A stretch of 64,000 nt of DNA, taken from Acidobacteriota bacterium. Its GTDB lineage: Bacteria; Acidobacteriota; Polarisedimenticolia; J045. Made by a program: the position numbers and the translations under genes. This document shows positions 15,619 through 38,988 of this stretch, one piece after another (the first letter of the stretch is position 1; each line of letters begins with the position of its first letter). Under the pieces are notes generated by a model, which saw only the letters and a list, made by a program, of their open reading frames with translations, was not told where the DNA came from and ran no database searches. The stretch is taken from contig JANNUT010000052.1 of assembly GCA_031395565.1 (NCBI GenBank), positions 17,882 through 81,881 of the forward strand, written 5' to 3'.

Positions 15619-15636
15619 ATGGGGCAAAACCCTACC
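15619..15636 (-). promoter_or_regulatory. Island motif copy (GGTAGGGTTTTGCCCCAT), oriented toward the 15371 micro-ORF / AI-2E transporter
   Basis: The plus strand reads ATGGGGCAAAACCCTACC. This copy lies inside the duplicated M48 upstream segment, so it is not independent of the 35760 copy. Confidence 0.4.
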
Positions 15637-15718
15637 AGATGCCGGCCTGGGTCTATCGCCCCATCGTGTCCTTCGCGGCCGCGCCGCGACCTCGACGCTT
15701 CAGTGAGGAGATCGAGCC

Positions 15719-16390
15719 ATGAATACCAATCAGCTTCGAGTGGCCGCCAAAGCGAGCTTTATCGACCGAGCAGGACTTGGAAATCGGTCGCCAGTCGGCC
15801 ATCGCGGTCGAGCGTCAGCTAGCGATCCTGCGAGATCTCTCCGCCAACGCTTACGTGACGGCGGCTGGCAAGCGTCTTGCGGCAATGAACGAAGGCCAGT
15901 TGGCGGGGTGATGGCACACGAAATGTCGCACGTAGTTCTGCGACATGGCACCAATCAAGCATCGAAGGCTCACATGGGACAAACGGGCCTGGGAGTTCTG
16001 GGCGGACTGCTCAGTAAGGAAAAGCGTTCAACGAACAAGGTGATCAGTGCCGTTGGCGGGTTCGGACTCAATGCGCTTTTCTTGAAGTTCAGCCGTACGG
16101 ATGAAGAACAAGCAGACATCGTTGGTGCCCAGGCGATGGCTAAGGCGGGCTACAACCCGCAAGCGATGGTCGACTTCTTCGAGACACTGAGGGCGGAGCA
16201 ATCGCATGATCCGAGCAAGCTAGAGCAGTACTTCAGCAGTCATCCGGCGCCCCAAGATCGTGCCGCTCGTATTCGCAAAGAAATGGCGATGTTGAGAATT
16301 CAAGCTTCTGAAGCGGTTGATGCTTCAAACAAGCGCGGGATAGGCGATCTAGGCGGGGTTCGGCGAGGCGCGCAGATTAGCGCCGACTAG
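15719..16390 (+). pseudogene. Degraded paralogue of the M48 metallopeptidase gene at 35860-37377
   Basis: Nucleotide-level similarity runs from 15619 to about 16335 versus 35760 to about 36669. Three indels relative to the intact copy remove the signal peptide and the FALPGGFMYLNRG block and put about 55 codons out of the ancestral frame. HEMSH and EEQAD are retained, and the C-terminal half is missing. Confidence 0.7.
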
Positions 16391-16680
16391 CCCGTGGGCT
16401 GGTGGCGCTTGTAGGCGCGTCTGGGTTTCCCACTTGGACAGTGCTTCTTAACCGTGCGCCGAGCGCTAACGCTCGCCGTCGTCCCGATCACCGCCAAGTC
16501 AGGGCGTGGCTCGTAGCTCCCGCTGCTGCGGGCGTGTGTCGTTAGTCGATTTGTGTCGCTTCATCGAAGTCGAAAGGCAACGACTCTTGCGGGTCCGGTC
16601 GGGCGCCGAGGCAGGCATCGTGCTGATCTGTCGGTGGCTACTGTTAGCAGCCACCGATTTCGATCAGCTTGATACTCTCT

Positions 16681-17733
16681 TTACCGCTTCACCTTCAGAT
16701 CGTTGTTGACCGACCGAACGCCAGTGCTTGCACGAACGGTCACGGCGGCCATCAGCCAGTCGCCCTCGGTGGGTACTGTGCCGGTGAGTCGTGCGACGCC
16801 GTTCTTGACATCTACCGAGACATCTTTGAACGCCGTCCTACTGCGGAGCGTTTCCTTGGCCGCCTCGAGGACGATGTCGTCTCGAGTCTCAACGGCCTTC
16901 TGAGCCTCGACCGGAACGACCTGAAGCAGATTGTCGACGTGCTTCACGCCCGACACCTTCATCACATCGTTCTCGGCAGCCTGCTTCGACAGTTCGGTAG
17001 GGACCACGCCAAACAGCGTCACAACTCCATTGTCGGTGTCGACGTTGATATCCAGTGCCGGTGTGTCGCCGTCGGCCATCAGCCGCATCTTCGACGCCGT
17101 GCTGATCCACATGTCGGAGAACGTGGAACCGTTGGCTTGACTGCTCGTTGCCGGTGGTGACTGCGCCAGTACTTCCTCTTGGCGGATCTCACGGTCGGCA
17201 AGTTGATCCGGGCTCTGCACTTCGCTCGCGACGCGCTGAACGCCATCCACACCACGTGCGAGGCGGATCGCTCTGAGATGGGCGGACAGGCTTGTAGCCT
17301 TTCCGCTGAGCAGGACGACGCCCTTGTTCACCGATTGCACGCGAATCTGACTGTCGCGCAGAGCTGCGTCGGAATCGAGCTTGGCTCTCACGTTCGTGCT
17401 GATCACCGAGTCCTTGTAGGAAGCAGACTTTCGGTTTGCGTCCGGCACGACTTGCAACAGATTGCGCACCTGCGTCACGCCTTCGATTTGCTTGGCGATC
17501 TCCTCCGCACGCACCTTCTCAGCGCCCGTCTCGACCTTGCCGTGCAGCGTCACGCGCCCGTTGACGGTGTCCACGTTCACTCGCGTGCCCGAAACACTGT
17601 CATCGGTCAATAGAGCAATTTTTGTTTTCATCGTGATCCACGGGTCGGCGCGATATGGCTGTGGTGAACCCGCAGCAAGCGCCAATGACCCGGTCATCAA
17701 GGCCAAAGACCCCAATTTTACGAAAATGTTCAT
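16681..17733 (-). CDS. Secreted multi-BON-domain protein (OsmY-like)
   Basis: Start at 17733 after an AGGAGGA RBS. Signal peptide MNIFVKLGSLALMTGSLALA. Four repeats of the BON pattern (V.V....G.VTL.G.V.....K..A..IA....GV..V.N.L.V). Confidence 0.85.
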   Translation of the reverse strand: MNIFVKLGSLALMTGSLALAAGSPQPYRADPWITMKTKIALLTDDSVSGTRVNVDTVNGRVTLHGKVETGAEKVRAEEIAKQIEGVTQVRNLLQVVPDANRKSASYKDSVISTNVRAKLDSDAALRDSQIRVQSVNKGVVLLSGKATSLSAHLRAIRLARGVDGVQRVASEVQSPDQLADREIRQEEVLAQSPPATSSQANGSTFSDMWISTASKMRLMADGDTPALDINVDTDNGVVTLFGVVPTELSKQAAENDVMKVSGVKHVDNLLQVVPVEAQKAVETRDDIVLEAAKETLRSRTAFKDVSVDVKNGVARLTGTVPTEGDWLMAAVTVRASTGVRSVNNDLKVKR

Positions 17734-17832
17734 GATCAATCCTCCTGAAGGTAGCGCTCGCGAGGGCGCAAGCGCGCCCCGATATCGATTGCCAGCCGTA
17801 GCTGAGGATCGGCCTGCCAGCCGCATCACGAC

Positions 17833-17850
17833 ATGGGGCAAAACCCTACC
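17833..17850 (-). promoter_or_regulatory. Island motif copy, oriented toward the BON gene (100 bp upstream of its ATG)
   Basis: The plus strand reads ATGGGGCAAAACCCTACC. This is the left arm of the 17835-17893 inverted repeat. Confidence 0.5.
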
Positions 17851-17877
17851 GTGCGCCGCGCCTCCAGCACCGCGCGC

Positions 17878-17895
17878 GGTAGGGTTTTGCCCCAG
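17878..17895 (+). promoter_or_regulatory. Island motif copy, oriented toward the DUF362-like gene
   Basis: GGTAGGGTTTTGCCCCAG. This is the right arm of the inverted repeat, 69 bp upstream of the ATG at 17964. Confidence 0.5.
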
Positions 17896-17963
17896 TGGTG
17901 CGTGCCCTCGCTAGTTCCAGAATGATCGGGACGCGAAAACGTGTCGCGACACAAGGAACTGCC

Positions 17964-19448
17964 ATGAGAGCCGCACTTAGAACGCAAGCCCCGCCAACGA
18001 CGGGTATCACTGGGCACAGCCCGCTGACTATAGATACAGAGAGCGGATTGTATGCACCGTTCTATCGACGTCGAGAATTTCTGATACGCGCGTCGCTCGC
18101 TTCGGCCGCGGCGCTGTTTGCTTCCAACTGGGTGTTTGATGAGGACCTGCCGCTAGCAGCTCCACGAGTTGTGCACGTTCATCACGGGCGCGCGGCGCGT
18201 TGGACGCGTACGACTGGCAACTATCGCGACTTCATCGACCAAAGCATCGTCACATTGATGCTCGATCAAGCCGTGCAGTCGCTCAAGGGCGGAACCGTGG
18301 CGCAAGCATGGGGAAATGTCTTCTCGCTCGCATCGCCTGAAACGCGGCTGCTCGGGATCAAGGTCAACTGCAACAACGCCAGCCTCGCCACCGATGGAGC
18401 AGGGTCGAGTATCGACGCAGTCCCTGAGCCGGTGATTGCGATTCTCAAGGGATTTCTGCGTACCGGAGGACGGGCCGCCAACTGCTACGTGTTCGACCTC
18501 TCGACCAGCGGTGGTTATCGCTACATTGCGACATGGTTTCGCAACAGAGTGCTCGCAGCCGTGCCTGGAGTGCAGTTTCGCGATGCGGCTGCCAACACTG
18601 GCGGCGCTTACAATGCAGCAACGCACGTCACTTGGTCTGCTGGCTATGCTACGACGCCACCGGTCACGCGCATTCACGATCTTCCGCGCCTATGCGATTA
18701 CATCGTCAACGTTCCAATCGTCAAACGTCACATCGGTGCCGGCGCAACGCTCGGCTACAAAAACCACTTCGGGACGATCGAGAACTGCAACGGTCTCCAC
18801 AACTACGTGTTCTCAGACGTCACGCAGGCGTCAGTTCTAGCCGACATCATGGGCAGCCCGGTGGTGGCAGGTGACGCGACCGTGCGCTCATTGGCGCAGA
18901 AGACCGTGCTCACCGTCGGCGACATGCTCTACGGTCAACCATGCAAGAACTTCGGCCTGTCTCCTGAACCGTGGGTGACGTTTGGCCGCGAGTGGCCCAA
19001 CAACTTGATCGTCGCATCGGATCCGGTCGCGGCGGACTCGGTCATGATCGATCTGCTGGAGGCCGAGCCAGCCGGAGGCGCCTGTGGCGGCATCTCCACT
19101 TGGACGCGCCGCTACCTGCAGTCTGCGGAAGCCAAGGGGCAGGGTGTTCACGACCACGTCGCCCTTCCCACTGGTCAGCGATTCGATCCAGCACGCATGA
19201 ACTACACGCGGCTGGCGTACCGCCATCTCGAGATCTGTCCAGGTGGTGCCGATCTACGTGTCACCAAGAATCTCGACGGCTCGACACAGCTGACGTGGAG
19301 TCACTACTTCGCAGGCAATTGCGAAGTACAGCGCGCGACAAAACCCGATTTCTCGGACCAGATCGTGATCGCGTTGAACGGGCTTGGCTACTGTACCGAT
19401 AGCTCGGGCATCGCGCCCGCGTACTATCGCGTCAACTTCGTGGGCTAA
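17964..19448 (+). CDS. Tat-exported DUF362-like protein with a C-terminal FN3-like module
   Basis: Twin-arginine signal YRRREFLIRASLASAAALFA. LGIKVNCNN..., VPIVKRHIGAGATLGYKNHFG and LIVASDPVAADSVMIDLL resemble DUF362. The start is uncertain (17895 or 17964). Confidence 0.55.
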   Translation: MRAALRTQAPPTTGITGHSPLTIDTESGLYAPFYRRREFLIRASLASAAALFASNWVFDEDLPLAAPRVVHVHHGRAARWTRTTGNYRDFIDQSIVTLMLDQAVQSLKGGTVAQAWGNVFSLASPETRLLGIKVNCNNASLATDGAGSSIDAVPEPVIAILKGFLRTGGRAANCYVFDLSTSGGYRYIATWFRNRVLAAVPGVQFRDAAANTGGAYNAATHVTWSAGYATTPPVTRIHDLPRLCDYIVNVPIVKRHIGAGATLGYKNHFGTIENCNGLHNYVFSDVTQASVLADIMGSPVVAGDATVRSLAQKTVLTVGDMLYGQPCKNFGLSPEPWVTFGREWPNNLIVASDPVAADSVMIDLLEAEPAGGACGGISTWTRRYLQSAEAKGQGVHDHVALPTGQRFDPARMNYTRLAYRHLEICPGGADLRVTKNLDGSTQLTWSHYFAGNCEVQRATKPDFSDQIVIALNGLGYCTDSSGIAPAYYRVNFVG

Positions 19449-19870: not shown

Positions 19871-20075
19871 ACAAACAGACCGCACGACGTGCGAAACGGA
19901 ACCTGTATCAACCTAAGAAGCGTCGGCGCGATGGCACGACACACGTCGTTTTCGAGCCGGTCGAATTCATCGCCAAGTTAGCCGCGTTGACTCCTGCACC
20001 GCGCGTTCATCTCGTCAGCTACCACGGCGTGCTCGCTCGCGGCGCACCAGGGCGTGATCGAATCGTGCCGCAGGT
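19871..20075 (+). mobile_element. Remnant: internal/C-terminal fragment of an IS91-family (Y2/HUH) transposase
   Basis: It reads ...RNLYQPKKRRRDGTTHVVFEPVEFIAKLAALTPAPRVHLVSYHGVLARGAPGRDRIVPQ. The DGTTHVVF.P.EFI.KLAAL.P.PR..L..YHGVLA block is typical of IS91 transposases. No start codon or N-terminal domain is present, and it abuts the rve remnant. Confidence 0.6.
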
Positions 20076-20093
20076 CGGGTTACACCCTATTGG
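20074..20093 (+). promoter_or_regulatory. Island motif copy (GTCGGGTTACACCCTATTGG), oriented toward the 20241 gene
   Basis: It shares 14 of 14 nt (GGGTTACACCCTAT) with the copy at 24058 and lies directly at the end of the IS91 remnant. Confidence 0.4.
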
Positions 20094-20240
20094 TGAGCGC
20101 GAGCACTGCGTTCAATGTAGTGACGTAGCGCTGCTACTTCGCCTTCGGTGTCGTGTCGGGTGACATTGGAGAGGTTGTCAGCATGCTCGCTTCGACCATC
20201 GTCTGAGCACCGTGCCCGGTGGTGATCCCCCAAACGCCGC

Positions 20241-21938
20241 GTGATCGAGAAAGGCACAAATACCATGACCGAAGATACACGGAGAGGAATGCGGGGTTCT
20301 TGGTGTCGTTGGTGGGCCACCGTGGCGGTGATTGTGGTCGTTGTGCAGGCTGCGGCAATCGCAGGCGTTCAGTGGCCGTTGAGGCTGTCAGCGAACGGTC
20401 GTCAGCTGCTAGACGAAAACGGCACGCCATTTCTAGTGATCGGAGATGCCGCGTGGGCGATGGCGGTCAATTTGTCGCCAGCCGAGATGGACAGCTATCT
20501 GGACGACCGTGTCGCCAAGGGATTCACGACGCTCATCGTGAGAGCGATCGACTCAGACGTGTCAGCAGGTGGGCCAACGGACTATCGCGGTGCAACGCCT
20601 TTCTCCCACGGCCCAAACGACTGGAGTGTTCGCAACGAAACGTACTGGCAAACCGTCGATCTGCTGATGGCGCGCGCCAAGGTGCGCGATCTGCTCGTGA
20701 TCTTCGTTCCGGCCTACCTCGGCTATCAATGCGGCAGCCAGGGATGGTGCCAGTCGATGAAATCACAGTCAGACGCTGCGATGTACGACTACGGGCGCTT
20801 CATCGCCAACCGCTACAAGGGATACAAGAACATCGTCTGGCTAGACGGTGGCGATTGCGACGCGGATCAGTACGGCACGGCCATCGATCGGGTGATCGCG
20901 TTGAAGAACGGCATCGTGTCGATCGATCCCGGGACTCTACGGCTCGGGCACACGAGCCGTAACGGTGAATCGGCGCTCGACTACCCGTGGATCGATACGC
21001 ACCCAGCGTACTCGGACTGCGATTCGTCCTCGCTGCGAGTTCGCACGGAGTTCGACCGGCAGCCCACGCGGCCGGTAATGCTATTGGAGGGGCGCTACGA
21101 GAATGAAGGCGCGAGCAGCAGCTGCATCGCTTCGCAGGCGATGTGGTCACTTCTCGGGGGTGCAATTGGGCACGTTTTCGGTAACCGGCCGATCTGGGAT
21201 TTCTCATCCGGTTGGCAGGGGCCCAGCGGCATCGGCGCAACTGGTTCGGTGCAAATGTGGAACATCGAGAAGCTCATGCGTTCGCGTGCGTGGTGGCGCT
21301 TCGAACCCGATTACGCACATACCACCGTGACTTTCGGTTTCGGTACGCTCGGGAGCGCCGGATACGTCCCAGCCGCACGTACCGATGATGGCCAAACGAT
21401 CATGGCCTTCTTGCCTTCTACCGTAGGTCCAGTACGAGTCAACATGACGCGCGTTGGGGGGGCCTCCGCCAAGGCATGGTGGTTTGACAACAAACTCGGA
21501 ACTTCGACGCTGATCGGTTCGTTTCCGGCCACGGGCACGCGCGACTTCACGGCGCCGGCTCAGGATTTGACGCTCGTATTGGATGTCGAGAACGCCGCGC
21601 TTGCAGCACCGGGAACCACGACATTCGCGCCACCAGTTCCTCTGGCTAGGGCTGTTGGCTTGCGCCTCCTCCCTCCGGTCGTTGCCGCAGGCAACACCGT
21701 CAACCTGACGATGCGCTGGCTGATCGTGCCTGGGGCGGCGAGCTATCGAATTTATCGTAGCGGCAACGCTGCCGGAACTTGGAATGAGTCTATCGCTGCG
21801 GGCTCGACATGCTTCGATACCAACGGCGATGCGTTGGACGACACCTGTGAGTTCAGCTGGGGAAGTCTCCCAAGACAACGAACCGACTACTTTCTGGTGA
21901 CCGGCTACGCAGGGTACTCGGAGTCGCCGCTGCACTAG
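20241..21938 (+). CDS. Secreted glycoside-hydrolase-like protein (DUF4038/GH140-like N-terminus) with a C-terminal FN3-like module
   Basis: 565 aa. NGRQLLDENGTPFLVIGDAAWAMAVNLSPAEMDSYLDDRVAKGFTTLIV resembles the DUF4038 N-terminus. Alternative starts are at 20265 and 20289. Confidence 0.5.
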   Translation: MIEKGTNTMTEDTRRGMRGSWCRWWATVAVIVVVVQAAAIAGVQWPLRLSANGRQLLDENGTPFLVIGDAAWAMAVNLSPAEMDSYLDDRVAKGFTTLIVRAIDSDVSAGGPTDYRGATPFSHGPNDWSVRNETYWQTVDLLMARAKVRDLLVIFVPAYLGYQCGSQGWCQSMKSQSDAAMYDYGRFIANRYKGYKNIVWLDGGDCDADQYGTAIDRVIALKNGIVSIDPGTLRLGHTSRNGESALDYPWIDTHPAYSDCDSSSLRVRTEFDRQPTRPVMLLEGRYENEGASSSCIASQAMWSLLGGAIGHVFGNRPIWDFSSGWQGPSGIGATGSVQMWNIEKLMRSRAWWRFEPDYAHTTVTFGFGTLGSAGYVPAARTDDGQTIMAFLPSTVGPVRVNMTRVGGASAKAWWFDNKLGTSTLIGSFPATGTRDFTAPAQDLTLVLDVENAALAAPGTTTFAPPVPLARAVGLRLLPPVVAAGNTVNLTMRWLIVPGAASYRIYRSGNAAGTWNESIAAGSTCFDTNGDALDDTCEFSWGSLPRQRTDYFLVTGYAGYSESPLH

Positions 21939-22000: not shown

Positions 22001-22681
22001 CTATTCGACGGTGAATCGGACGCCGGAATCGATGATGCCAGCCGCAATCGCATAGCGCGTGAGACCCGCCGTATCATGGATGTCGAGCTTACTCATCAGA
22101 TGCTGTCGATGCTTCTCCACGGTCTTGATGCTGATTCCCAGTTCATCGGCGGTCTGTTTGTTGGCCTTGCCTTCAGCGATCAGTTGGAGAACCTCCACCT
22201 CTCGGGACGTCAGGTGCACGGCCTTCGCCCCGCTGTGTCCTGTACCGCTGATGACTGACTTTCGCTCGCGCTCGCGCCGTCGCCTGGCGATGGATGTATC
22301 GAAGAACTGGTTGCCAGACTGGATTGCCCGAATTGCCTTAGGAAGTATCAGGGCCGAAGACTGCTTGATCAGGTATCCAGCGGCGCCGATCTCGACCGCT
22401 CGTTCGACATACTCGTCATCACCGTGCGCCGAAAGGACCAACACTTTGGTTGCGGGAGCGTTCTTGAGTACCTGCCGAGTAGCTTCCAGTCCATTCAAAA
22501 GCGGCATCGCGAGGTCCATCACGACCACGTCGGGTGCAAGCTGCTTGACGAGTTGTACAGCTTGGCGGCCGGAGCTTGCTTGCCCGACGACCAGGATGTC
22601 GGCTTCTGTCCCCAACAGGGCAGCGAGTCCCTCACGAACGATCTCGTGATCATCAACCAGCAAGACGGTGATCGGTTTCAT
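22001..22681 (-). CDS. NarL/LuxR-family response regulator
   Basis: 226 aa. The REC domain (VLLVDDHEIVREGL...DVVVMDLAMPLLNG) is followed by a LuxR HTH (LTSREVEVLQLIAEGKANKQTADELGISIKTVEKHRQHLMSKL). Confidence 0.9.
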   Translation of the reverse strand: MKPITVLLVDDHEIVREGLAALLGTEADILVVGQASSGRQAVQLVKQLAPDVVVMDLAMPLLNGLEATRQVLKNAPATKVLVLSAHGDDEYVERAVEIGAAGYLIKQSSALILPKAIRAIQSGNQFFDTSIARRRRERERKSVISGTGHSGAKAVHLTSREVEVLQLIAEGKANKQTADELGISIKTVEKHRQHLMSKLDIHDTAGLTRYAIAAGIIDSGVRFTVE

Positions 22682-22682: not shown

Positions 22683-23852
22683 TCAAGAGCTCAAGCGGCG
22701 AGGCCGCCGCTGTGTGAGCCTGTCGCCGAATGGAACCAGTACGATGACGGTCGTGCCTTTGCTAGGCTCGGATTCGATGCTGAAGGTGCCGCCGACCATC
22801 TCGGTGCGCTCTCGCATCCCGAGCAACCCCAATCGCAGTCCCGGTTTGATGCGCGAGACGTCAGCCACCTTGAAAGACTTGCCGTCGTCGTGGATTTCCA
22901 TGCGGACGTTGTCTCCGAGTCTCTGGAACGTGACCTCCAGCAGATTTGCCCGAGCGTGCCTGTCGACATTCGTGAATGCTTCTTGAGCCACTCGATAGAG
23001 CACGGTCCGAACATCGCTTCGCAACTCCTCGATCGAAGCAAACGTCTTGAAATGAACTTCGATATGGGTTCGCTTGGAAAAGTCCGTCAGGTAGGACTTG
23101 AGCGCAGCAACGAGCCCTAGATCGTCTAGCAGCGGAGGTCGTAGCTCGCGTGCAAATCGGTGCACCCGGTTCAGCGATTTCTCCAGCAGCCTCTGGGTGC
23201 TAGCGATCTTACGCTTGAGGCTGGTCGTACTGACGGTGGCCTCCTTGGTCAGCGTTGCTAATCTGACATTGACGGCAGTCAGGGTCTGGCCGATTTCATC
23301 GTGGAGTTCTCGGCTGATCTGTTTTCGTTCCTCTTCATGGGCATACAGGATCTCGTGAGAGAGTCTCCGCAGCTGCTCCTGCAAACGCTCCGAACTCGCG
23401 AGTAGTTGACCGCAGTGCGCCTCGCTGGTCGCGAGGGCTTTTTGAGCCGATTCACGTTGACCGATTTCTCGCTCTAATTGACGGCGCAACGCGGCCAACT
23501 GTTTGGTCCGCTCGCGCAGCGTGGCGTTGGCACGAGTCAAGTTGCCGTTGCTTTTGATTGCCGTTCGATGGGCGTTCCCAAATGGCATGAGTGCCTTGAA
23601 GAAAAAGCTCGCGCTCCCCGTGGCGACTCGATTGCTCTTCGCGGCGCCGGTGCTCACAGAGAGCGCCGTTGCTAGGGCGCTCGCATGCATCTTGACCAGA
23701 TCGAACGTGTTCAACCCGGCGGCCAGCGCTTCGAGCCCGAGCAACTCGGCGGGCCGGAGGCTCGCGCTTCGCCCAGGCGCCAATTGCTTTCGCAACTCGA
23801 GCGTGTAGCGTCGCGACAAGCCGGTTTCCTGCACCTTAGAGTTCGAACTCAT
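22683..23852 (-). CDS. Cytoplasmic HisKA_3 sensor histidine kinase with an RsbU_N-like N-terminal domain and a coiled coil
   Basis: 389 aa with no TM segment. H-box EEERKQISRELHDEIGQTLTAV and an HATPase_c domain (N, G1 and G2 boxes). It ends 1 nt before the regulator gene. Confidence 0.85.
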   Translation of the reverse strand: MSSNSKVQETGLSRRYTLELRKQLAPGRSASLRPAELLGLEALAAGLNTFDLVKMHASALATALSVSTGAAKSNRVATGSASFFFKALMPFGNAHRTAIKSNGNLTRANATLRERTKQLAALRRQLEREIGQRESAQKALATSEAHCGQLLASSERLQEQLRRLSHEILYAHEEERKQISRELHDEIGQTLTAVNVRLATLTKEATVSTTSLKRKIASTQRLLEKSLNRVHRFARELRPPLLDDLGLVAALKSYLTDFSKRTHIEVHFKTFASIEELRSDVRTVLYRVAQEAFTNVDRHARANLLEVTFQRLGDNVRMEIHDDGKSFKVADVSRIKPGLRLGLLGMRERTEMVGGTFSIESEPSKGTTVIVLVPFGDRLTQRRPRRLSS

Positions 23853-23957
23853 GGTTCACCTCGGCGGAAGCGTTTCAAGCGCAACCACTCGCCGGGTATG
23901 CCATCGGACGACACACCAAAATCGCCGCCATTGTGAGCCTGCCTCCGGGACATGTCT

Positions 23958-31833: not shown

Positions 31834-32198
31834 GGGACGGCCTCGCCTCTCTGGTCCAAATCAATCAGGCGAAACAACTCGGCGATCGTCGTCAGGTTAC
31901 CAATGAACCGTCGGACTGGCAGGGGCGATGCAATGACGAGCGTCGGCGTGGCAACGATCTGGTTTTCGCGCGCTAGACTCGGCTGTTGGTAGATGTCGAT
32001 CACTTCCAATTCGACTCGGCCTTTCAACGTCGTTTCGCACAGCGCACGAACGTGCACGATCGCTTGGCGCGACCGTGCTGTGACTCCCGCCACGAAGAGG
32101 CGCAGAACGTACTTGTCTCTGGTCGCGCGCGTCGGAGGCATCATAGCAGCGTGTTTCGTGTGACCGATCGCTTTCGTGATTCGTTTCATTGCAGTCAT
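31830..32198 (-). CDS. kaiB: KaiB-like protein (second copy)
   Basis: YVLRLFVAGVTARSRQAIVHVRALCETTLKGRVELEVIDIYQQPSLARENQIVATPTLV is the thioredoxin-like KaiB signature. It has an N-terminal extension of about 28 aa. Confidence 0.8.
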   Translation of the reverse strand: MTAMKRITKAIGHTKHAAMMPPTRATRDKYVLRLFVAGVTARSRQAIVHVRALCETTLKGRVELEVIDIYQQPSLARENQIVATPTLVIASPLPVRRFIGNLTTIAELFRLIDLDQRGEAVP

Positions 32199-32521
32199 CG
32201 TGCCGAGGACAGATCCAGACCTAAGAGCGCGCGCTTGGTATCCGAGAGCGTCCCGATAATGGTGCGTGCCGGCTTTGGCAGCCTGCGCACCACCGTAGGA
32301 ATCGCCAGGATCTGATCGTCCTTGGCAAAGTGAGGCTGCTTCAGCAAGTCAATCACCGTAATGCGATAGCGGCCCTTGAGCTGGCTTTCGCAGATCTCTT
32401 TCAACTTTGCGAAGGCCACTCGCGAGTTGGATGTCGAGCCGGCCACATAAAGCCGTAGTTGCCAGGGCTTGCGAGTGCCGCTCGAGCAAGGGGCCGCGCC
32501 CTCACTAGTCTCGGTCTTCAC
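32195..32521 (-). CDS. kaiB: KaiB-like protein (first copy)
   Basis: WQLRLYVAGSTSNSRVAFAKLKEICESQLKGRYRITVIDLLKQPHFAKDDQILAIPTVVRRLPKPARTIIGTLSD is the canonical KaiB sequence. Confidence 0.85.
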   Translation of the reverse strand: MKTETSEGAAPCSSGTRKPWQLRLYVAGSTSNSRVAFAKLKEICESQLKGRYRITVIDLLKQPHFAKDDQILAIPTVVRRLPKPARTIIGTLSDTKRALLGLDLSSAR

Positions 32522-34278
32522 TGAGTGTTTCTCCTGTTCTTGGACTTGCTTCGTGAACTGGTCGTCAGTTTCGCATCCGCCTGGCGTAAGATGCCGGACG
32601 CCGTTCGTTCGGTGCCCAGCACTGAAGCTCGCGTGCCTACCTGTTCGGCAGTGCGCCGTAGTTCCATGGCTTTGCTTTCATAGTTGGAACGCAGATTCTT
32701 GATTTGCCGTTCGAGAGCACTGCGCTCGCGATCCACCTCACGCCTGAGTCGAGCGGCTTCCTGTTGATTGGCTAAGACCGCGGCCCGTTCGAGGTCCTCT
32801 TGCGCCACGCGGGCAGACCCGGTCAACACGCCGCTGACACCGATGTAAGCGTCCACGACATCAACGCCGCGATCCGAGATCAAAAACTCGCGAACTTGAT
32901 TCGAGTGCGCCATCCCGCGCGCCTTGAGCACATACAGCACGCGATTGCGTTCGCCGTTGCCTTCGAGATCCCGCAACAGCACCCACGCGTCCATGAGAGA
33001 GGACATCGCACCTTCGTTCCGCTGCGGTCCAACGTCAGTCGGCGTCAGGCTGGTGAAGAGCGAGGTAACCTGTCCGCCCTTCAGGAAATCGATCAGCCTG
33101 GTCACCATTCCTCTGCCCTCGGACTCGGTGCCCGCGTCCATCAAGCTGGTGATTGGGTCCATGACCACAACGCGCGGTTGATAGGTGCTGATCTCTTTGA
33201 ACATGGTGGCGAGGTGCATTTCCAGGCCATAAAGCGAGGGCCGAGCCGAATGAAACCGGAGCAGGCCACGCTTGACCAACGGCTCCAATTCCAATCCGAT
33301 GGATCGCATGTTGCGGATGATTTGGTTGGGGGATTCCTCGAACGAGAAGAAGAGTGCGCGTTCTCCGCGCATCGCGGCAGCATGGGCGAAGTTGACGGCG
33401 ACAATCGTCTTGCCGGTACCGGCCGTACCCGAGAGAAAAATGCTGCTGCCGCGAAAAAACCCCTTCCCGCCCAGCATCGCGTCGAAGCGCGGGATGCCGG
33501 TAGCGATCCGCTGACTCGACACCGTGTGATTCAGCCCCAGCGACGTGATCGGGAGAACGCTGATGCCATCGTCGCCGATGAGGAAAGGGAATTCGTTGGT
33601 TCCGTGTAGCGCGCCGCGATACTTCACCACGCGCAAACTGCGCGTGGCGATCTGGTCGATGACCCGATGCTCGAGCAGGATGACGCAATCGGAGACGTAT
33701 TCCTCTAGCCCGTGGCGCGTCAGTGATTCGCGGCCGCGCTCTGCGGTAATGACAGCGGTGAGGCCTTTGGCTTTGAGCCAGCGAAAGAGTCGGTGCAACT
33801 CGCTGCGTAAAACGGCCTCGTTGGGCAGGTTAGCGAACAGCACCTCGAGCGTGTCCAACACCACGCGTTTGGCGCCGATGGAATCAATCGCGTGAGCCAG
33901 CCTGACGAACAGCCCTTCCAGATCGTAATCGCCGCTTTCTTGCAGTCCGTGGCGCTCGATCTGAACGTAGTCCACGACGATCTTCTTTCGTCGTATAAGC
34001 CCTGCGAGATCGAATCCGAGCGAAGCGACGTTGGCCTTCAACTCGTTCTCGGTCTCCTCGAAAGCCATCAATACGCCAGGCTCGCGGAACTGGGCCGCGC
34101 CGCGCACAAGGAACTCCGTGGCCAGCAGCGTCTTGCCACAACCGGCGCCGCCGCAAACCAGCGTGGGTCTTCCGCGCGGCAATCCGCCGCCGGTGATTTC
34201 ATCGAGACCTTGGATGCCGCTCAGACACCTGGGCAAGCGCGTCGTCGAAGGGGTGGGCTTACGAGGTGTGGTTGTCAT
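32518..34278 (-). CDS. kaiC: KaiC (double RecA-like ATPase) with an extended charged C-terminal tail
   Basis: 586 aa. CI Walker A GGAGCGKT and CII Walker A GTAGTGKT. GIQGLDEITGGGLPRGRPTLV; ...AMSSLMDAWVLLRDLEGNGERNRVLYVLKARGMAHSNQVREFLISDRG. Confidence 0.9.
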   Translation of the reverse strand: MTTTPRKPTPSTTRLPRCLSGIQGLDEITGGGLPRGRPTLVCGGAGCGKTLLATEFLVRGAAQFREPGVLMAFEETENELKANVASLGFDLAGLIRRKKIVVDYVQIERHGLQESGDYDLEGLFVRLAHAIDSIGAKRVVLDTLEVLFANLPNEAVLRSELHRLFRWLKAKGLTAVITAERGRESLTRHGLEEYVSDCVILLEHRVIDQIATRSLRVVKYRGALHGTNEFPFLIGDDGISVLPITSLGLNHTVSSQRIATGIPRFDAMLGGKGFFRGSSIFLSGTAGTGKTIVAVNFAHAAAMRGERALFFSFEESPNQIIRNMRSIGLELEPLVKRGLLRFHSARPSLYGLEMHLATMFKEISTYQPRVVVMDPITSLMDAGTESEGRGMVTRLIDFLKGGQVTSLFTSLTPTDVGPQRNEGAMSSLMDAWVLLRDLEGNGERNRVLYVLKARGMAHSNQVREFLISDRGVDVVDAYIGVSGVLTGSARVAQEDLERAAVLANQQEAARLRREVDRERSALERQIKNLRSNYESKAMELRRTAEQVGTRASVLGTERTASGILRQADAKLTTSSRSKSKNRRNTQ

Positions 34279-34520
34279 TCACGGCATCCTCTCGTCAATA
34301 CGGGCGAAGCGCGATTCGCCTCGAAGCAGTCCGCGCTATATCGCACTTGCTGTTGAGTGAAGTGAGGGTGCTGGTGAATCGGGGTGAATTCTCGCTGCCC
34401 TGGACGAAAGGCATTCGCACTGCATCCCAGTCCCAAGACGTGTCCTCATCGCGGTCCTACCATCCCTCGGCACCAAACCGTTCACCAACAACCACTATCG
34501 GCGATCGGCGGCCACGGTCT

Positions 34521-34536
34521 ATGGGGTGAACACCGC
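34521..34536 (-). promoter_or_regulatory. Island motif copy (minus strand GCGGTGTTCACCCCAT), oriented toward kaiC
   Basis: 243 bp upstream of the kaiC ATG at 34278. Confidence 0.45.
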
Positions 34537-34650
34537 ATAGACACCCGGGAGATGGCGACCGGGGTTGGCCGAGGACAAGCTAACCCGCGCGCGCAACAGA
34601 TCGAACGGAGGTGGGGGACTGAGCCTTTCCCCCACGACCGCGCCAGTGTG

Positions 34651-35397
34651 CTATCTCCGAAGATCGATCGTGAGCGACCTGTCGAGCGTGACGGTGAGTT
34701 CGGTTCCAACGGGCATCACGATCTCTCGACCCTTCGTGCCCGCAGCGATGCCGGTTCCGATGGCGCCACCGACGACCGCGCCGATCGCGGCATCTTTCGT
34801 ATCTCCGCCGAGAATCTTGCCCAAAATCGCGCCGCCCGCAGCACTTCCGCCGATGATTCCAGCGGTCTTGCTCTTGGAGTTAGCGATGCTGGTAACCGAA
34901 CCCGACATCGACACGCTATTGCCAGCCGGTGTCGTGATCGTCGTGAACGACAGTACGATCGATCCGCCCTTGACGGCGTTCTTCAACCCCTTCTTTGCAG
35001 GGCTGACGTCCGTCACCGTGCCACGAACCGTGCTTCCAACCGGGATCGCGACTCGATCACCGACCAATACGACAGCGGTTGTCATTGCCATTGCCGAGTC
35101 TCCGACCTGACTGGTCCCAGATCCAATAGGAGACGAGAGATGCATTCGGATCCCGGTCCCTTCGGGCACTGTGACGCGCACCGAAGCGGGCTCGCGTGCT
35201 TGCGCGATGGGGGAACCGCCGGAGGCCCTCGAGCGTACAGGCAATACCGCGCCGGCTCCGACGTCGCGCCCATCGCCTTGCGACGCGCCCAACGGTTCTT
35301 CGGATCCTTGTTGGCAGCCAAGACTGAGAGCGACGGCGCCCATCACAATGGCCGCGAGCGTAGCTTTGGAAATACGGTCGAGAATTCTGGTGTTCAT
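34651..35397 (-). CDS. Lipoprotein with a C-terminal glycine-zipper region
   Basis: 248 aa. Lipobox LSLGC. C-terminus GIIGGSAAGGAILGKILGG...AAIGAVVGGAIGTGIAAG. ATGA overlap with the upstream small membrane ORF. Confidence 0.65.
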   Translation of the reverse strand: MNTRILDRISKATLAAIVMGAVALSLGCQQGSEEPLGASQGDGRDVGAGAVLPVRSRASGGSPIAQAREPASVRVTVPEGTGIRMHLSSPIGSGTSQVGDSAMAMTTAVVLVGDRVAIPVGSTVRGTVTDVSPAKKGLKNAVKGGSIVLSFTTITTPAGNSVSMSGSVTSIANSKSKTAGIIGGSAAGGAILGKILGGDTKDAAIGAVVGGAIGTGIAAGTKGREIVMPVGTELTVTLDRSLTIDLRR

Positions 35398-35678
35398 GGT
35401 CTCTCCTTCGTAGAGAACGCGAACTCACGTCGCCTTACACTAGGCGTCAACGAGTCGGTAGATTTCTTCTTGTCATCGAGCAAAAAAGCGATACCGCCCA
35501 CGAGAGCGATAGCGCCGAGGATCGGTGGAAACGACGTTTCCTGGATTGGCGCAGCTTCCCGGAGTGTTGGGCTGGGATCGGCGTTTCGAAGACGCTTGAG
35601 GTAACTCTCGCCCTCAGTGGCGATTGTCACGACACCGAGACCGAGAAGAGCGATTCCTACAATGACCTTCAGGTTCAT
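35394..35678 (-). CDS. Small two-TM membrane protein (paralogue of 24475-24711)
   Basis: Start at 35678 after a GAGGAG RBS. MNLKVIVGIALLGLGVVTIA...SFPPILGAIALVGGIAFLLDD. Confidence 0.55.
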   Translation of the reverse strand: MNLKVIVGIALLGLGVVTIATEGESYLKRLRNADPSPTLREAAPIQETSFPPILGAIALVGGIAFLLDDKKKSTDSLTPSVRRREFAFSTKERP

Positions 35679-35759
35679 GGGCCACTCCTCTCGTGCAGTA
35701 GGAAAGACGTGTGCGCAGTACGACCGTTCGGACAGTACGTCAGCGGCCCTCACACCTCC

Positions 35760-35777
35760 ATGGGGCATAACCCTACC
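35760..35777 (-). promoter_or_regulatory. Island motif copy (minus strand GGTAGGGTTATGCCCCAT), oriented toward the 35678 operon; it also lies 83 bp upstream of the divergent M48 gene
   Basis: The plus strand reads ATGGGGCATAACCCTACC, 82 bp from the ATG at 35678. Confidence 0.5.
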
Positions 35778-35859
35778 GGGCGTCGCCGTGGGGCTATCAC
35801 CCCATCGCGCCTTTCGCGGCCGCGCCGCAATCTCGACGCTTCAGCGAGGAGATCAATCC

Positions 35860-37377
35860 ATGACTACCAAAGTGCTTCGAGTGGGCGCCAGAGCGAGCGT
35901 CATCGCGATGATCGCGGTGATCGCCGTCAGCGCTGTTTCGGCGCAAACGAAAATCAAACCAGGCTTCAATCTTTTCTCGACCGAGCAGGACGTGGAAATC
36001 GGGCGCCAGTCGGCCATTGAGGTCGAGCGTCAACTCCCGATCCTGCGAGATCGCTCCGCCAACGCGTACGTCACGGCGGTCGGCAAGCGCCTCGCGGCGA
36101 AAATGCCCGGCACAGGATTTACGTACCAGTTCAAGATCGTGAACACGTCAGACATCAATGCTTTTGCGCTACCCGGCGGCTTCATGTACCTCAACCGCGG
36201 GCTGATCGAAGCGGCAAAAAACGAAGGCCAATTGGCGGGGGTCATGGCACACGAAATGTCGCACGTGGCACTGCGGCATGGCACCAATCAGGCATCGAAG
36301 GCCTACATGGGACAAGCGGGGTTGGGAATCCTGGGCGGATTGATGGGCAAGGAGAAGGGCTCACCGAACAAGGTGATCAGTGCCGTTGGCGGGTTCGGAC
36401 TCAATGCGCTTTTCCTGAAGTTCAGTCGTACCGATGAAGAACAAGCAGACATCGTTGGTGCCCAAGCGATGGCTAAGGCGGGCTACAACCCGCAGGAGAT
36501 GGTCGACTTCTTCGAGACACTGAGAGCGGAACAATCGCATGATCCGAGTAAGCTAGAGCAGTACTTCAGCAGTCATCCGGCGCCCCAAGATCGTGCCGCT
36601 CGTATTCGCAAGGAAATGGCGATGTTGAGGATCCAACCTTCCGAACCGGTCGGTGGATTCAAACAAGCGAAAGCCACGCTCATGAGCAAGCCGGCAGCTC
36701 GGTCGATGCAGCAGATTGCCAAGAATCAGCCGGCCACTCCGCGGCCGCGGGAGTACCCGGAAAACGCCAGCAGCGAAGTCAATATCGAGGCGCCGTCGGC
36801 GACGTTCCGGACGTTCGAGCAGCGAAACAGAAACTTCACTATCGACTATCCGTCCAACTGGAACGCGACAGAGTCGGCAGATGGTCTGGGAATCACGCTT
36901 TCACCGCCTGGCGGAGTCGTGAGTTCTGGAAACGCTGAAGGCGATTTGATCTACGGTGTGGTGGTCAATCACTACGCACCGTTCCTGAACGAGGATGACA
37001 GCGGTAACGATCGGTTTTCTTTCATGGGATCGCCAAGCGAGCCCGGCGGCAGGGATCTCAGCCGCACCGATCTCGCCGAGGCGGTGAACGACCTGGTCGG
37101 ACAGATCGTTCGCACCAACCCCACGCTCAAGCTCGTTCCCGACTCGCAGCGCACCGAGACGATTGACGGTGGTGCCGCTCTCTCGCTTGTCTTGGCGGGG
37201 CGATCGGCGGTCACGAAGCGGGACGAACACGTCACGGTCTTCGCACGCGAGCTTTCTGATGACCACATCGTCTATGCGTTGTTTATTGCGCCAGGACAGA
37301 AGGACGCTCGACTTCGGGGAACGTTCGACCGCATGCTCAGCAGCTTGCGCGTGAACGACGAAGCAAGGCACCAATAG
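35860..37377 (+). CDS. Secreted M48-family zinc metallopeptidase
   Basis: Start at 35860 after a GAGGAG RBS, with a signal peptide. FALPGGFMYLNRG, HEMSHVALRHG, SRTDEEQADIVG. The C-terminal ~240 aa domain is of unknown function. Confidence 0.85.
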   Translation: MTTKVLRVGARASVIAMIAVIAVSAVSAQTKIKPGFNLFSTEQDVEIGRQSAIEVERQLPILRDRSANAYVTAVGKRLAAKMPGTGFTYQFKIVNTSDINAFALPGGFMYLNRGLIEAAKNEGQLAGVMAHEMSHVALRHGTNQASKAYMGQAGLGILGGLMGKEKGSPNKVISAVGGFGLNALFLKFSRTDEEQADIVGAQAMAKAGYNPQEMVDFFETLRAEQSHDPSKLEQYFSSHPAPQDRAARIRKEMAMLRIQPSEPVGGFKQAKATLMSKPAARSMQQIAKNQPATPRPREYPENASSEVNIEAPSATFRTFEQRNRNFTIDYPSNWNATESADGLGITLSPPGGVVSSGNAEGDLIYGVVVNHYAPFLNEDDSGNDRFSFMGSPSEPGGRDLSRTDLAEAVNDLVGQIVRTNPTLKLVPDSQRTETIDGGAALSLVLAGRSAVTKRDEHVTVFARELSDDHIVYALFIAPGQKDARLRGTFDRMLSSLRVNDEARHQ

Positions 37378-37560
37378 CAGGATCTAGCTGCTCATCGCTT
37401 CGAGTGCGAAGTCGTGTGCAGAGCGCGTACGGAAACGCTTGACTTGGTTGGGTCGCGAGGTGACAAGCCCACCACGCGACCCTACCGCAAGGAGTTCGCT
37501 ACTGCTTGACCTGCCGTCTCGATCATGTCGTGTTGTGCTCCAGTCATGGGAAAGCGGCAG

Positions 37561-38904
37561 CTAGAGACTCAGCAAGTACTGCGTCAGATCTCGCCGCTGT
37601 TGGTCATTCAGCCCCAGCTTCAACAGCGAGTTGTAATGATCGATGACGTGGTCGAGCGTGGCGAAACGGCCATCGTGATAAAAACCACCCTTCTGATGTG
37701 TCCACAACCCTGCCAACGGAGCGGTCCGGTAGGCGTGTGTGGGTGAGCGATCGGCTTGGAACGAGTCGACTCCCATCTCAGCGGGCGTGTGCAAATTCTG
37801 GCCCGGCTCAGTGAAGAGCGGCGGGACGTGACAACCGGCGCAACGCGCCTTGCCGGCGAAGAGCGATTTGCCACGAACGGCCGCGTCGGCGTCGTACGAC
37901 CCTGCGGGCGCTTTCGGCGCCGGCAACGCCAACTGATACGCGTGGAGTGCCGCCAACTTGGGAGTAACCAGGTCCGGCTCACCGCGCGTGTCCCACGATC
38001 CTGTCCTGGCGGCAACGGGGTACTGAGCACTATCACTCAGTCGAGCGTCGAGGAATGTTCCTGACCCATGCATCTCCGTCGTGGCGACGTACGCATTCCA
38101 ATACGCGACCGAACCGAAGCCCGTCCAGGTATGCAAGTTGATTCCGGCAAGCCCGAAGGCGGGAGGAATGAGGGTGCCCGCTTGCTTGCCATCGGGACGA
38201 AACGCCTTACCGTCCTTGTCTAGCACCGCATCGAATCGCCCAGGTCCCCAACTCGCCAGCACAGCTTTTACGGTGGCGATGTCGACCTGCAACGCATCGG
38301 CGATCGGTTGCAGGTTCGGCGCCAACGAGACGATCGCGCCGACGTTGAGGTCGCGATTGGCCCACCCATCGAGGCGGTGACCAATCCCTGGTGCCAGTGA
38401 GTCGTCCACGGTTGAATGACAGAACGCGCACTGCAGCCCTATCGACCTCAATCTGCCGTCTGGACTGAAACGGCCTGTGAGGCCGACGACTGCATCGAGT
38501 TTGAGCAAGGCGACAGTCGTGGCCGGGTCGTCGAGATCTACCTTTCCTGCGCGCAGTTGATTTTGAAGCTGTGAGGGGAGCGAGTCGACATCGATCTTCA
38601 AGCCGACCGACAGGGCGGTCTTCGGGCTCACCCCTAGACCTACCCCGCCGAGCTTTTCTCCCGCAATCGCTCGGTGTAGTTGTAAGCCGTCACCCCAATA
38701 CGCTTCGTTGCCAAAGGTGTCGTAGCGGAAGGTGCGCCGACCCTCCTCGAGCGTCGCCTTTCCATCGATCCGGAGATGATCACCGTCGATCAGCGCTAGC
38801 GTGCCGGGCCGGTCGCGAGCACCGAATGCGCCCTGTGTGAGAATCAGAAGTCCGGAAAAAAAAGCCGCAAGCAACCCGACTCCAAAGATGTGTCTCGTGT
38901 TCAT
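37561..38904 (-). CDS. Secreted di-haem c-type cytochrome (peroxidase-like)
   Basis: 447 aa with a signal peptide and two CxxCH motifs (CAFCH, CAGCH). The exact family was not resolved. Confidence 0.65.
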   Translation of the reverse strand: MNTRHIFGVGLLAAFFSGLLILTQGAFGARDRPGTLALIDGDHLRIDGKATLEEGRRTFRYDTFGNEAYWGDGLQLHRAIAGEKLGGVGLGVSPKTALSVGLKIDVDSLPSQLQNQLRAGKVDLDDPATTVALLKLDAVVGLTGRFSPDGRLRSIGLQCAFCHSTVDDSLAPGIGHRLDGWANRDLNVGAIVSLAPNLQPIADALQVDIATVKAVLASWGPGRFDAVLDKDGKAFRPDGKQAGTLIPPAFGLAGINLHTWTGFGSVAYWNAYVATTEMHGSGTFLDARLSDSAQYPVAARTGSWDTRGEPDLVTPKLAALHAYQLALPAPKAPAGSYDADAAVRGKSLFAGKARCAGCHVPPLFTEPGQNLHTPAEMGVDSFQADRSPTHAYRTAPLAGLWTHQKGGFYHDGRFATLDHVIDHYNSLLKLGLNDQQRRDLTQYLLSL

Positions 38905-38972
38905 GATTGATCCTCCGAGAGGACTACTGACTGAAGGACCAAAACACTAGAAGAAGGAAGTCTCCGAGTTCT

Positions 38973-38988
38973 ATAGGGTGAACACCGA
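38973..38988 (-). promoter_or_regulatory. Island motif copy (minus strand TCGGTGTTCACCCTAT), oriented toward the di-haem cytochrome gene
   Basis: 69 bp upstream of the ATG at 38904. Confidence 0.45.

Follow-up and report, generated by a model that had tools for sequence, protein, structure and literature searches.

A 64-kb stretch of an Acidobacteriota genome (64,000 nucleotides of contig JANNUT010000052.1, hereafter the window) carries a conserved 18-bp element, here called the box, in 13 promoters that lie within a gene block of about 25 kb. The box is probably the DNA site of the phosphorylated form of a NarL/LuxR-family regulator encoded in the same block (22001-22681, minus strand), which is predicted to act as a class II activator. 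As we picture it, a regulator dimer would bind inverted TRGGGT half-sites (TAGGGT-N3-ACCCYA or TGGGGT-N4-ACCCCA) and, from a position at about -43, would recruit RNA polymerase to promoters that have a good housekeeping-type -10 and a poor -35. In the window 13 promoters and about 25 genes of one 25-kb block would thus be switched on, the products including BON, Ysc84, Gly-zipper and DUF5670 proteins, M48 proteases, an AI-2E transporter, a sugar transferase and a cytochrome c. Both presumed kinase operons, the regulator's own and the kai operon, would be activated as well, which would amount to positive feedback. The inputs would be the co-transcribed RsbU_N-type kinase (22683-23852) and the PAS kinase that ends a kaiC-kaiB-kaiB operon; should both kinases act, a KaiA-less KaiB-KaiC timer and a second stress input would together be read out in transcription through this regulon. 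The predicted arrangement is of a mechanistically familiar type, a two-component regulon under a NarL-type regulator with a class II box, and its interest comes from conservation across phyla and from tight genetic coupling to the KaiB-KaiC module.

The box recurs in the promoters of a single gene block

An initial annotation of the window had listed twelve copies of the motif, said to occur in intergenic DNA only. A position weight matrix (PWM) was built from these copies and run across the whole window, a strong copy being one that scores at least 13.5 bits. Eleven of the twelve were found again (15619-, 17833-, 17878+, 20073+, 23958-, 24058+, 26722+, 28433+, 34521-, 35760- and 38973-, the sign giving the strand), and two further copies came to light, 35788+ (GTGGGGCTATCACCCCAT) and its weaker duplicate 15647+ (CTGGGTCTATCGCCCCAT), each of which points to an M48 peptidase gene divergent from a listed copy. 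All 13 strong copies lie between 15.6 and 39.0 kb, while the same scan met no strong or comparable copy in the remaining 40 kb or so of the window. A box-plus-(-10) model trained on foreign genomes only gave 9 window matches of at least 10 bits, compared to 0.0 in 20 shuffles; all 9 fall within the same 15.6-39.0 kb block, and each is a listed or a newly found copy. Once start codons with a ribosome-binding site are used, all 13 copies are intergenic, in a window of which intergenic DNA makes up 11%; three copies first called coding owed this to over-long open reading frames (ORFs). The restriction to intergenic DNA therefore stands, the distances from box to start codon agree with those given earlier to 1-2 nt, and Pfam confirms the gene names.

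The twelfth listed copy, a variant at 24843 before the PQQ propeller gene, had to be given up: it falls below the PWM threshold, is missed by the foreign-trained model and lacks a -10 at the constant distance described below. The site forms the 3' arm of a perfect 11-bp inverted repeat (24821-24831 / 24847-24857, 15-nt loop). This repeat, GGCAGGGTGTT...AACACCCTGCC (24821-24857), has the DUF5670 operon on one side and the PQQ propeller gene on the other; the arms are like box half-sites, yet their spacing is wrong and no -10 follows.

The box stands in a fixed register with a -10 element

Of the 13 window copies, 9 are followed by a hexamer of the form nAnnnT that begins 23 nt after the box (offset 23), two more have it at offset 24 (11/13), and any other offset from 1 to 59 has at most two. 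The same register is seen in two sets of foreign sites described in the next section. Near regulator orthologues the -10 is at offset 23 in 114 of 179 sites and at offset 24 in 19, over a background of about 7 per offset; among metagenome instances selected by pattern only, the corresponding counts are 89 and 25 of 130 (114/130 in sum). The housekeeping-like form TAnnnT is present at 76 of the 179 orthologue-linked sites, all 76 being among the offset-23 sites. A G stands two bases past the box in 12/13 window, 131/179 orthologue-linked and 108/130 metagenome sites, and with the T that ends the box this G gives T-n-G, the framework of a weak -35 (TTGACA), the rest of which is not conserved. 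From the 3' end of the box to the -10 there is a gap of 22-23 bp. With the hexamer taken as -12 to -7, the box therefore covers -52 to -35 and has its dyad centre at about -43. Relative to the predicted -10, this placement near -43, overlapping or abutting a weak -35, is the geometry of a class II activator, for which a fixed -10 register, a weak -35 and a centre at about -41.5 to -43.5 are the marks.

Within the box, the promoter-proximal half ACCCYAT, which abuts the -35 region, is near-invariant and the distal half is looser. The two spacing classes differ in their register: across loci L001-L200 the asymmetric N3 form has its -10 at offset 23 versus 24 in 192 versus 31 cases, and the palindromic N4 form in 22 versus 27, which suggests that the position of the distal half-site feeds back on the promoter register. 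Every copy had been described as pointing toward the nearest downstream start codon, and indeed, in intergenic regions whose flanking genes are co-directional, the copy is directed to the downstream gene in all five cases (20073, 26722, 28433, 34521 and 38973); the eight copies outside such regions form four divergent pairs. One correction applies here: the orientation stems from the -10 register and the -35 overlap, not from the site alone, and it is because of these two features that a near-symmetric site is always directed to the gene.

A repressor operator would look similar in some respects. The regulator, or another dimer, would then sit on the -35 and block RNA polymerase until a signal removes it; the site, at about -52 to -35 of the predicted start, does abut the -35 hexamer, and negative control is possible for autoregulated two-component operons. 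However, the -10 register is exact to 1 bp in hundreds of promoters across phyla, which disfavours repression because such precision is needed for polymerase contact and not for steric occlusion. Moreover, the -35 hexamers are poor (only T-n-G is kept), as is typical of activator-dependent promoters, and the family members with GC-rich palindromes, NreC and DosR, activate (PMC5694512, PMC3177182). We consider the repressor improbable, and binding would accordingly be expected to activate rather than repress.

The box and the regulator co-occur across phyla

A search for the regulator in one genome per species gave 80 loci with orthologues of 56-71% identity (1.19 Mb in all). The closest are in Acidobacteriota/Terriglobia, many are in Verrucomicrobiota, and the other hosts are Planctomycetota, Omnitrophota, Kiritimatiellae and Victivallales. 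One cultured carrier was noted, Haloferula sp. BvORR071 (L055). In this DNA the window-derived matrix has 179 matches of at least 16 bits, compared to 3.7 expected from shuffles, and the richest locus (L019) has up to 7 box positions at that threshold. The proposal that 22001-22681 is the regulator in question is supported in that its 80 orthologues are ringed by the box. Matches are densest at 8-11 kb, where the kinase-regulator operon lies (the regulator gene is at about 10.0-10.7 kb of each locus); autoregulation, claimed earlier for the window from the copy in front of this operon, is thus predicted to be conserved, since it is there that the density in relatives peaks. Relatives carry two forms of the box, TAGGGT-N3-ACCCCA (usually with a 5' GG; GGTAGGGTTwyACCCCAT) and the palindromic TGGGGT-N4-ACCCCA. 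Perfect palindromes such as ATGGGGTGTTCACCCCAT are common beside the asymmetric form, in agreement with the earlier view of the box as the site of a dimeric helix-turn-helix protein.

The reverse test made no reference to the regulator: a metagenome collection was searched with the bare pattern GGTAGGGTTNNACCCCAT, which yielded 130 unique instances. A regulator orthologue is found on 11 of the 54 box-selected contigs of at least 5 kb, far above the chance rate for one gene per genome.

The protein encoded at 22001-22681 is a bona fide NarL-family response regulator, with a receiver (REC) domain (PF00072, E 2.7e-28) and a GerE domain (PF00196, E 9.4e-19) in Pfam. It has D10, D11, D56 and K106, columns that are conserved in the 80 orthologues, and it aligns over its full length with the structures of LiaR/VraR, DevR and NarL; the closest solved relative is LiaR/VraR (5hev, E 3.5e-45), DevR and NarL ranking after it. 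None of the NCBIfam equivalogs matched it above its cut-off.

That a different factor reads the box, for example the other NarL-type regulator of the window (43232-43882), and that 22001-22681 is linked to it merely as a target operon, seems to us quite unlikely. The kinase-regulator operon is itself preceded by a box, which is enough for some co-occurrence, and binding by 22001-22681 is a deduction from sequence. Yet the co-occurrence covers many non-regulator genes in at least four phyla, and the box-selected contigs in addition, while the 22001-22681 regulator is the sole DNA-binding protein that is consistently present. Its recognition helix, IKTVEKHR, shows at least 95% conservation in the 80 orthologues, over several phyla; the 43232-43882 paralogue differs at these contact positions.

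Directly upstream of the regulator, in the same operon, lies the gene for a histidine kinase (22683-23852, minus strand) with a weak RsbU_N-like N-terminus, a coiled coil, HisKA_3 and HATPase_c, and this pairing is repeated in orthologous loci. The RsbU_N match is weak in the window protein (E 0.0036) and above the Pfam cut-off in two orthologues, L035 and L070 (positions of the region in relatives are L035:8151-8843, L070:8165-8872 and L202:8843-10000). In Bacillus, the N-terminal domain of RsbU docks the stressosome kinase RsbT. By this analogy the RsbU_N-like domain hints at an input from a protein partner rather than from a small ligand; no RsbR, RsbS or RsbT genes were seen in the window. 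Both this kinase and the PAS kinase 30565-31833 are soluble, with no hydrophobic segment, and a presumed inducing signal would reach the regulator by phosphotransfer from either of them.

Other candidate roles for the box

A promoter for an alternative sigma factor, for example of the extracytoplasmic function (ECF) type, would account for an oriented element at a fixed spacing to a downstream hexamer, the box being its -35 element; ECF-type sigma genes do lie downstream in 4 loci, and the window has an ECF-like gene at 42633-43160. We regard this as very unlikely, as the box is a dyad and often a perfect palindrome, its -10 is housekeeping-like at the 76 TAnnnT sites given above, and it co-occurs with the REC-GerE regulator, not with a sigma gene. 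Spacers of sigma-70-family promoters are 16-19 nt, which the 22-23 nt gap to the -10 exceeds. Two ordinary promoter types were also tried and rejected. For a sigma-54 promoter, sequence inspection puts the GG...GC spacing one base too short, and the GC is missing from the short variants. Taken as the -10/-35 of a standard promoter of its own, the box shows no consistent hexamer 17 nt after TTGCCC, the -10 being 22-23 nt past the box.

A REP/MITE-type repeat end (repetitive extragenic palindrome or miniature inverted-repeat transposable element) or a transcribed RNA element, as a short GC-rich inverted repeat recurring in intergenic DNA might be, can be dismissed almost outright: the flanks of the copies are dissimilar save for one gene-containing segmental duplication (15619-16204 versus 35760-36537, 83-90% identity), so the box is not a mobile repeat family; a search of the block against Rfam was without match; the stem would be 3-6 bp with a loop of 2-5 nt; and the box, being upstream of the -10, is not expected to be transcribed. 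The duplication had been flagged by the initial annotation, and the repeat search of the window returned only this M48 duplication and repeats of the ssrA end, with no extended flank similarity, terminal inverted repeats or target-site duplications of REP/MITE type around the copies.

The regulator is genetically linked to a KaiA-less KaiB-KaiC module

The kai operon of the window (30565-34278, minus strand) consists of kaiC (32518-34278), two kaiB genes (32195-32521 and 31830-32198) and the gene for the soluble PAS-HisKA_3 kinase (30565-31833), as identified by Pfam. KaiC has two KaiC domains and is of the Rhodobacter sphaeroides type with a C-terminal extension; it matches PDB 8dba (E 1e-184, aligned to residue 546 of 586), compared to 1e-94 for KaiC of S. 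elongatus. The KaiA family had no match among 33 window ORFs scanned with Pfam. A double-domain KaiC with extension, adjacent kaiB and no kaiA match place the operon, by its genes, with the KaiA-independent Rhodobacter type. KaiC of this type functions without KaiA, as an hourglass.

A kaiC-kaiB(-kaiB)-PAS-HisKA_3 operon lies beside the regulator in 11 of the 80 regulator-centred loci, with KaiC 73-84% identical; the regulator comes immediately after the PAS kinase in L018, L024 and L038, and immediately before kaiC in L052, L053, L067 and L076. A second set of loci was picked only for a KaiC homologue on long contigs (7 independent, 6 evaluable). In all six evaluable ones a REC-GerE regulator, 59-65% identical to that of the window, stands in the same gene string as KaiC. 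These strings hold kaiC-kaiB-kaiB and a PAS-HisKA_3 kinase, and the regulator often abuts the PAS kinase. In L202, for instance, the abutting genes read RsbU_N-kinase-KaiC-KaiB-KaiB-PAS-kinase-regulator, and in L204 the string is kinase-regulator-KaiC-KaiB-KaiB-PAS-kinase-BON. A box with its -10 precedes the kaiC-containing operon in 6 of the 7 KaiC-centred loci (with the regulator-centred L053 counted in, loci with this arrangement are L053, L201, L202, L204, L205, L207 and L208). BON genes are box-preceded in 5 of the 7, and in three loci a DUF5670 gene follows each of them. No other DNA-binding protein is a constant member of the Kai-linked strings. The annotation's suggestion of the Kai-linked kinase as a second input is therefore strongly backed by synteny (11/80 regulator-centred and 6/6 KaiC-centred loci), and such an input is what we would predict.

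A wider proposal, to which we give even odds, is that box, regulator and targets together are the output arm of KaiA-less KaiB-KaiC timers and make up an envelope-centred general stress response of non-photosynthetic soil and water bacteria. The state of KaiC would gate the PAS-HisKA_3 kinase, the regulator would be phosphorylated, and a general-stress-like, envelope-centred regulon would come on. This would apply to Acidobacteriota, Verrucomicrobiota, Planctomycetota and Omnitrophota, with time or energy gating by KaiC and the RsbU_N-type kinase being integrated. The present locus makes it testable what KaiC homologues control outside cyanobacteria and by which DNA-binding factor they do so, because KaiB-KaiC, a PAS kinase, a NarL-type regulator, a box at a fixed position and a list of targets are all present. 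If only the more conservative reading of box and regulator holds, a well-defined new NarL-family regulator-operator pair would still be obtained.

Several points weigh against these readings. The position at -43 is based on a predicted -10 hexamer, not on a mapped start site, and a site that overlaps the -35 could in principle repress. Linkage by synteny falls short of proof that the box is read by this regulator and not by another protein. Within the window, three copies have a weak box or a weak -10, namely 15647, 34521 and, as regards its distal half, 26722. As to the Kai module, Kai genes lie within 10 kb in just 11 of the 80 regulator-centred loci, so the Kai input may not be universal, and the two closest relatives, L001 and L002, have no box directly upstream of kaiC.

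The input module that lies upstream in the Kai operon seems to be open to exchange. In L206 (5029-9989) and L207 (5841-9976), both KaiC-centred loci, the place of the RsbU_N-type kinase before kaiC is taken, in one gene string with it, by a CheB-CheR-PAS fusion protein and an extra PAS-HisKA_3 kinase. A second module is found in the window at 42633-46935, a few kb from the Kai and regulator genes, with a Reg_prop/Y_Y_Y HisKA_3 kinase and a NarL-type regulator; an ECF-like sigma gene and the gene for a CHAT protein accompany it there, and no box precedes it in the window. A similar second module is present in an unrelated KaiC-centred locus (L207:16083-19713), and the module may be part of the same network.

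Predicted targets belong to families characteristic of general stress regulons

For each box-plus-(-10) site, the first plausible downstream gene was taken and scanned against Pfam. Near regulator orthologues (128 genes) the families are HisKA_3 (18), BON (12), Ice_binding (11), PRC-barrel (7), PAS (5), RsbU_N (5), ECF sigma (4), Ysc84 (3), DUF6600 (3), ferritin (2) and YflT (2). On the box-selected metagenome contigs (99 genes) they are BON (7), HisKA_3 (6), PRC-barrel (5), RsbU_N (3), OsmC (2) and YflT (2), with Hsp20, Band_7 and Ysc84 also included. Targets that recur across phyla are BON, PRC-barrel, YflT, OsmC, Hsp20, DUF5670 and Ysc84, and those of the window are mostly secreted, periplasmic or membrane proteins. 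Such families are typical of general stress regulons like those of sigma-B in Bacillus and EcfG in Alphaproteobacteria. The cargo had been called typical of stress or dormancy; the stress part is supported, because the recurrent families are those of general stress regulons, while the dormancy part found no specific support. Ice-binding-like secreted proteins (PF11999), among the commonest box-preceded genes in relatives (11/128, for example L205:3709-4737), are absent from the window.

We know of no general stress regulator for these groups, and the regulator is therefore a candidate master regulator for them. The chain is conserved in at least four phyla, groups that abound in soil and water but are little studied by genetics, and the composite of box and -10 is specific enough for regulon prediction in genomes and bins of these groups, with 0 false matches in shuffled 64-kb sequences.

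Comparison with known systems

No description of the box or of this regulator group was found in the literature, within a limited search that may have missed an existing one. Binding to GC-rich inverted repeats has precedents among NarL-family regulators, in DosR (PMC2275270) and NreC (PMC5694512). Several features recall DosR/DevR of Mycobacterium tuberculosis: a NarL-family REC-GerE regulator, a GC-rich inverted repeat, an autoregulated kinase-regulator operon (here predicted) and many stress-type targets clustered close to the regulator. In DosR promoters the proximal box overlaps the -35 region. The box had been set apart from the DosR box by its half-site spacing, a contrast that holds only in part. 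The palindromic ATGGGGTGTTCACCCCAT has the same 18-bp GGG-N8-CCC frame as the Dev box (TTSGGGACTWWAGTCCCSAA), the DosR consensus containing GGGACTWWAGTCCC (PMC2275270), and an essential inner base is different. DevR requires G5 and C7 in each half-site, and its promoters need at least two tandem boxes, bound cooperatively (PMC3177182). The half-site here, A-T-G-G-G-G-T-G-T, retains G5 and has T at position 7 (PMC3177182, PMC2275270); the inner half-site is GTG as opposed to ACT in DosR, and the commonest form has a one-base-shorter spacer. There is one box per promoter instead of the two or more tandem boxes of DevR (PMC3177182), no second box being conserved over the 30 nt that precede the 13 copies and only divergent promoter pairs being seen. 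Since T replaces C7 and the tandem architecture is missing, the box is not a Dev box. The kinases differ too, being RsbU_N-like or PAS proteins with no GAF domain in either by Pfam, and DevR is not the closest solved relative of the regulator.

The NreC box of Staphylococcus is reportedly TAGGG-N4-CCCTA in the work of Fedtke et al. from 2002. Compared with this consensus, the spacing here is different, TAGGG-N5-CCCTA or TGGGG-N6-CCCCA. NreBC is alike in combining a PAS-HisKA_3 kinase with a NarL-family regulator and a GC-rich palindrome with TAGGG/CCCTA arms, which NreC binds to enhance transcription initiation (PMC5694512). In contrast to the four-Cys Fe-S site of that system, the PAS region of 30565-31833 has one Cys, and the targets here are stress and envelope genes, not genes of nitrate respiration.

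In class II activation by LuxR/TraR, the lux box is centred near -42.5. The likeness lies in a GerE-type helix-turn-helix dimer on a dyad that overlaps the -35 (here predicted), and the difference in control, by a ligand there and, as predicted from its domains, by phosphorylation here. LiaR and VraR, the closest solved homologues, control envelope-stress genes. To our knowledge none of the lux, LiaR and VraR boxes is related in sequence to the box described here.

Like the cyanobacterial KaiABC-SasA/CikA-RpaA system, the locus combines a KaiC-KaiB module with a histidine kinase and a DNA-binding regulator of a regulon (bioRxiv 10.1101/2022.01.26.477890). It differs in that KaiC is of the KaiA-independent Rhodobacter type (8dba), the kinase has PAS and HisKA_3 in place of a KaiB-like domain and HisKA, the regulator is NarL-type and not OmpR-type, and a second kinase, of RsbU_N type, belongs to the module. 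In Pseudomonas, KaiC homologues bind the PAS domain of a neighbouring kinase and affect resistance to osmotic and oxidative stress, and the DNA-binding output of the KaiC system is described as unidentified (bioRxiv 10.1101/2022.01.26.477890). In the KaiC-like systems known from Pseudomonas, Legionella and Rhodopseudomonas, for stress resistance or for hourglass timing, kaiC likewise adjoins the gene of a PAS histidine kinase; their neighbouring regulators are single-domain receivers, whereas here a DNA-binding regulator, a box and a candidate regulon are visible.

Individual promoters of the window

Target genes were assigned with Pfam. The first box, GGTAGGGTTTTGCCCCAT (15619-15636, minus strand; -10-like AATCAT at 15591-15596), has as targets a 30-aa micro-ORF (15279-15371) and the AI-2E transporter gene (13986-15272). 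Divergent from it is the weak box CTGGGTCTATCGCCCCAT (15647-15664, plus; poor -10 CGACCT at 15687-15692), a duplicate of the one at 35788, which is directed to a short M48 peptidase copy (15719-16390). The full counterpart of this pair is formed by GGTAGGGTTATGCCCCAT (35760-35777, minus; -10 TACTGT at 35732-35737), with a 94-aa membrane protein (35394-35678) and a 248-aa lipoprotein (34651-35397) as targets, and GTGGGGCTATCACCCCAT (35788-35805, plus; -10-like CAATCT at 35828-35833), directed to a secreted M48 peptidase (35860-37377). The segmental duplication (15619-16390 versus 35760-37377) thus comprises the divergent promoter pair and the M48 gene. The copy at 15719-16390 encodes 223 aa, compared to 505 aa in the other, and looks like a decaying paralogue, because it is short and its box and -10 are degraded.

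A second divergent pair serves a secreted four-BON-domain protein (16681-17733), through GGTAGGGTTTTGCCCCAT (17833-17850, minus; -10-like GATCCT at 17805-17810), and a DUF362 protein (17964-19448), through GGTAGGGTTTTGCCCCAG (17878-17895, plus; -10-like CAGAAT at 17918-17923). An apiosidase-like glycoside hydrolase gene (20265-21938) follows GGTCGGGTTACACCCTAT (20073-20090, plus; -10-like CAATGT at 20113-20118). The promoter of the kinase-regulator operon, predicted to be autoregulatory, has GCGGGGGTTTTGCCCCAT (23958-23975, minus; -10-like CACAAT at 23930-23935), and the divergent GGTAGGGTTACACCCTAT (24058-24075, plus; -10-like CAGCAT at 24098-24103) is directed to genes for a DUF5670 protein (24215-24370) and a small membrane protein (24475-24711).

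Further along the block, TTACGGTGAACACCCCAT (26722-26739, plus; -10 TACCAT at 26763-26768, offset 24) precedes a Bac_transf sugar transferase gene (26867-28387). Downstream of GGTAGGGTTCTGCCCCAT (28433-28450, plus; -10 TACGAT at 28473-28478) lie the genes for a Ysc84/SYLF protein (28623-29360), a Gly-zipper protein (29464-29976) and a 160-aa protein (29961-30443); Ysc84 orthologues with an upstream box are also present in L001, L002 and L127. The box ATGCGGTGTTCACCCCAT (34521-34538, minus) stands 242 nt upstream of kaiC with an imperfect -10, TAGTGG (34492-34497, offset 24). The last copy, CTTCGGTGTTCACCCTAT (38973-38990, minus; -10 TAGTGT at 38944-38949, offset 24), is directed to the gene for a cytochrome c protein (37561-38904) with weak similarity to MauG / di-haem peroxidase.

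Genomic surroundings

The G+C content of the box-bearing block is 0.58-0.60, compared to 0.62-0.63 in the neighbouring DNA. The gene for the transfer-messenger RNA, ssrA, is at 13389-13741 (tag ANNNFALAA), and two further copies of its 3' end follow in tandem at 13820-13862 and 13923-13965, with 103-nt spacing and 91% identity. These repeats resemble the scars of islands that integrate into ssrA, and the lower-GC block with the boxes begins right after them; neither an integrase nor a distal copy of the ssrA-end repeat, which would mark an island boundary, was found. Just upstream of ssrA, at 8411-12892, flagellar genes (FlgK, FliL) and the gene for an HDOD protein represent chromosomal backbone outside the block.

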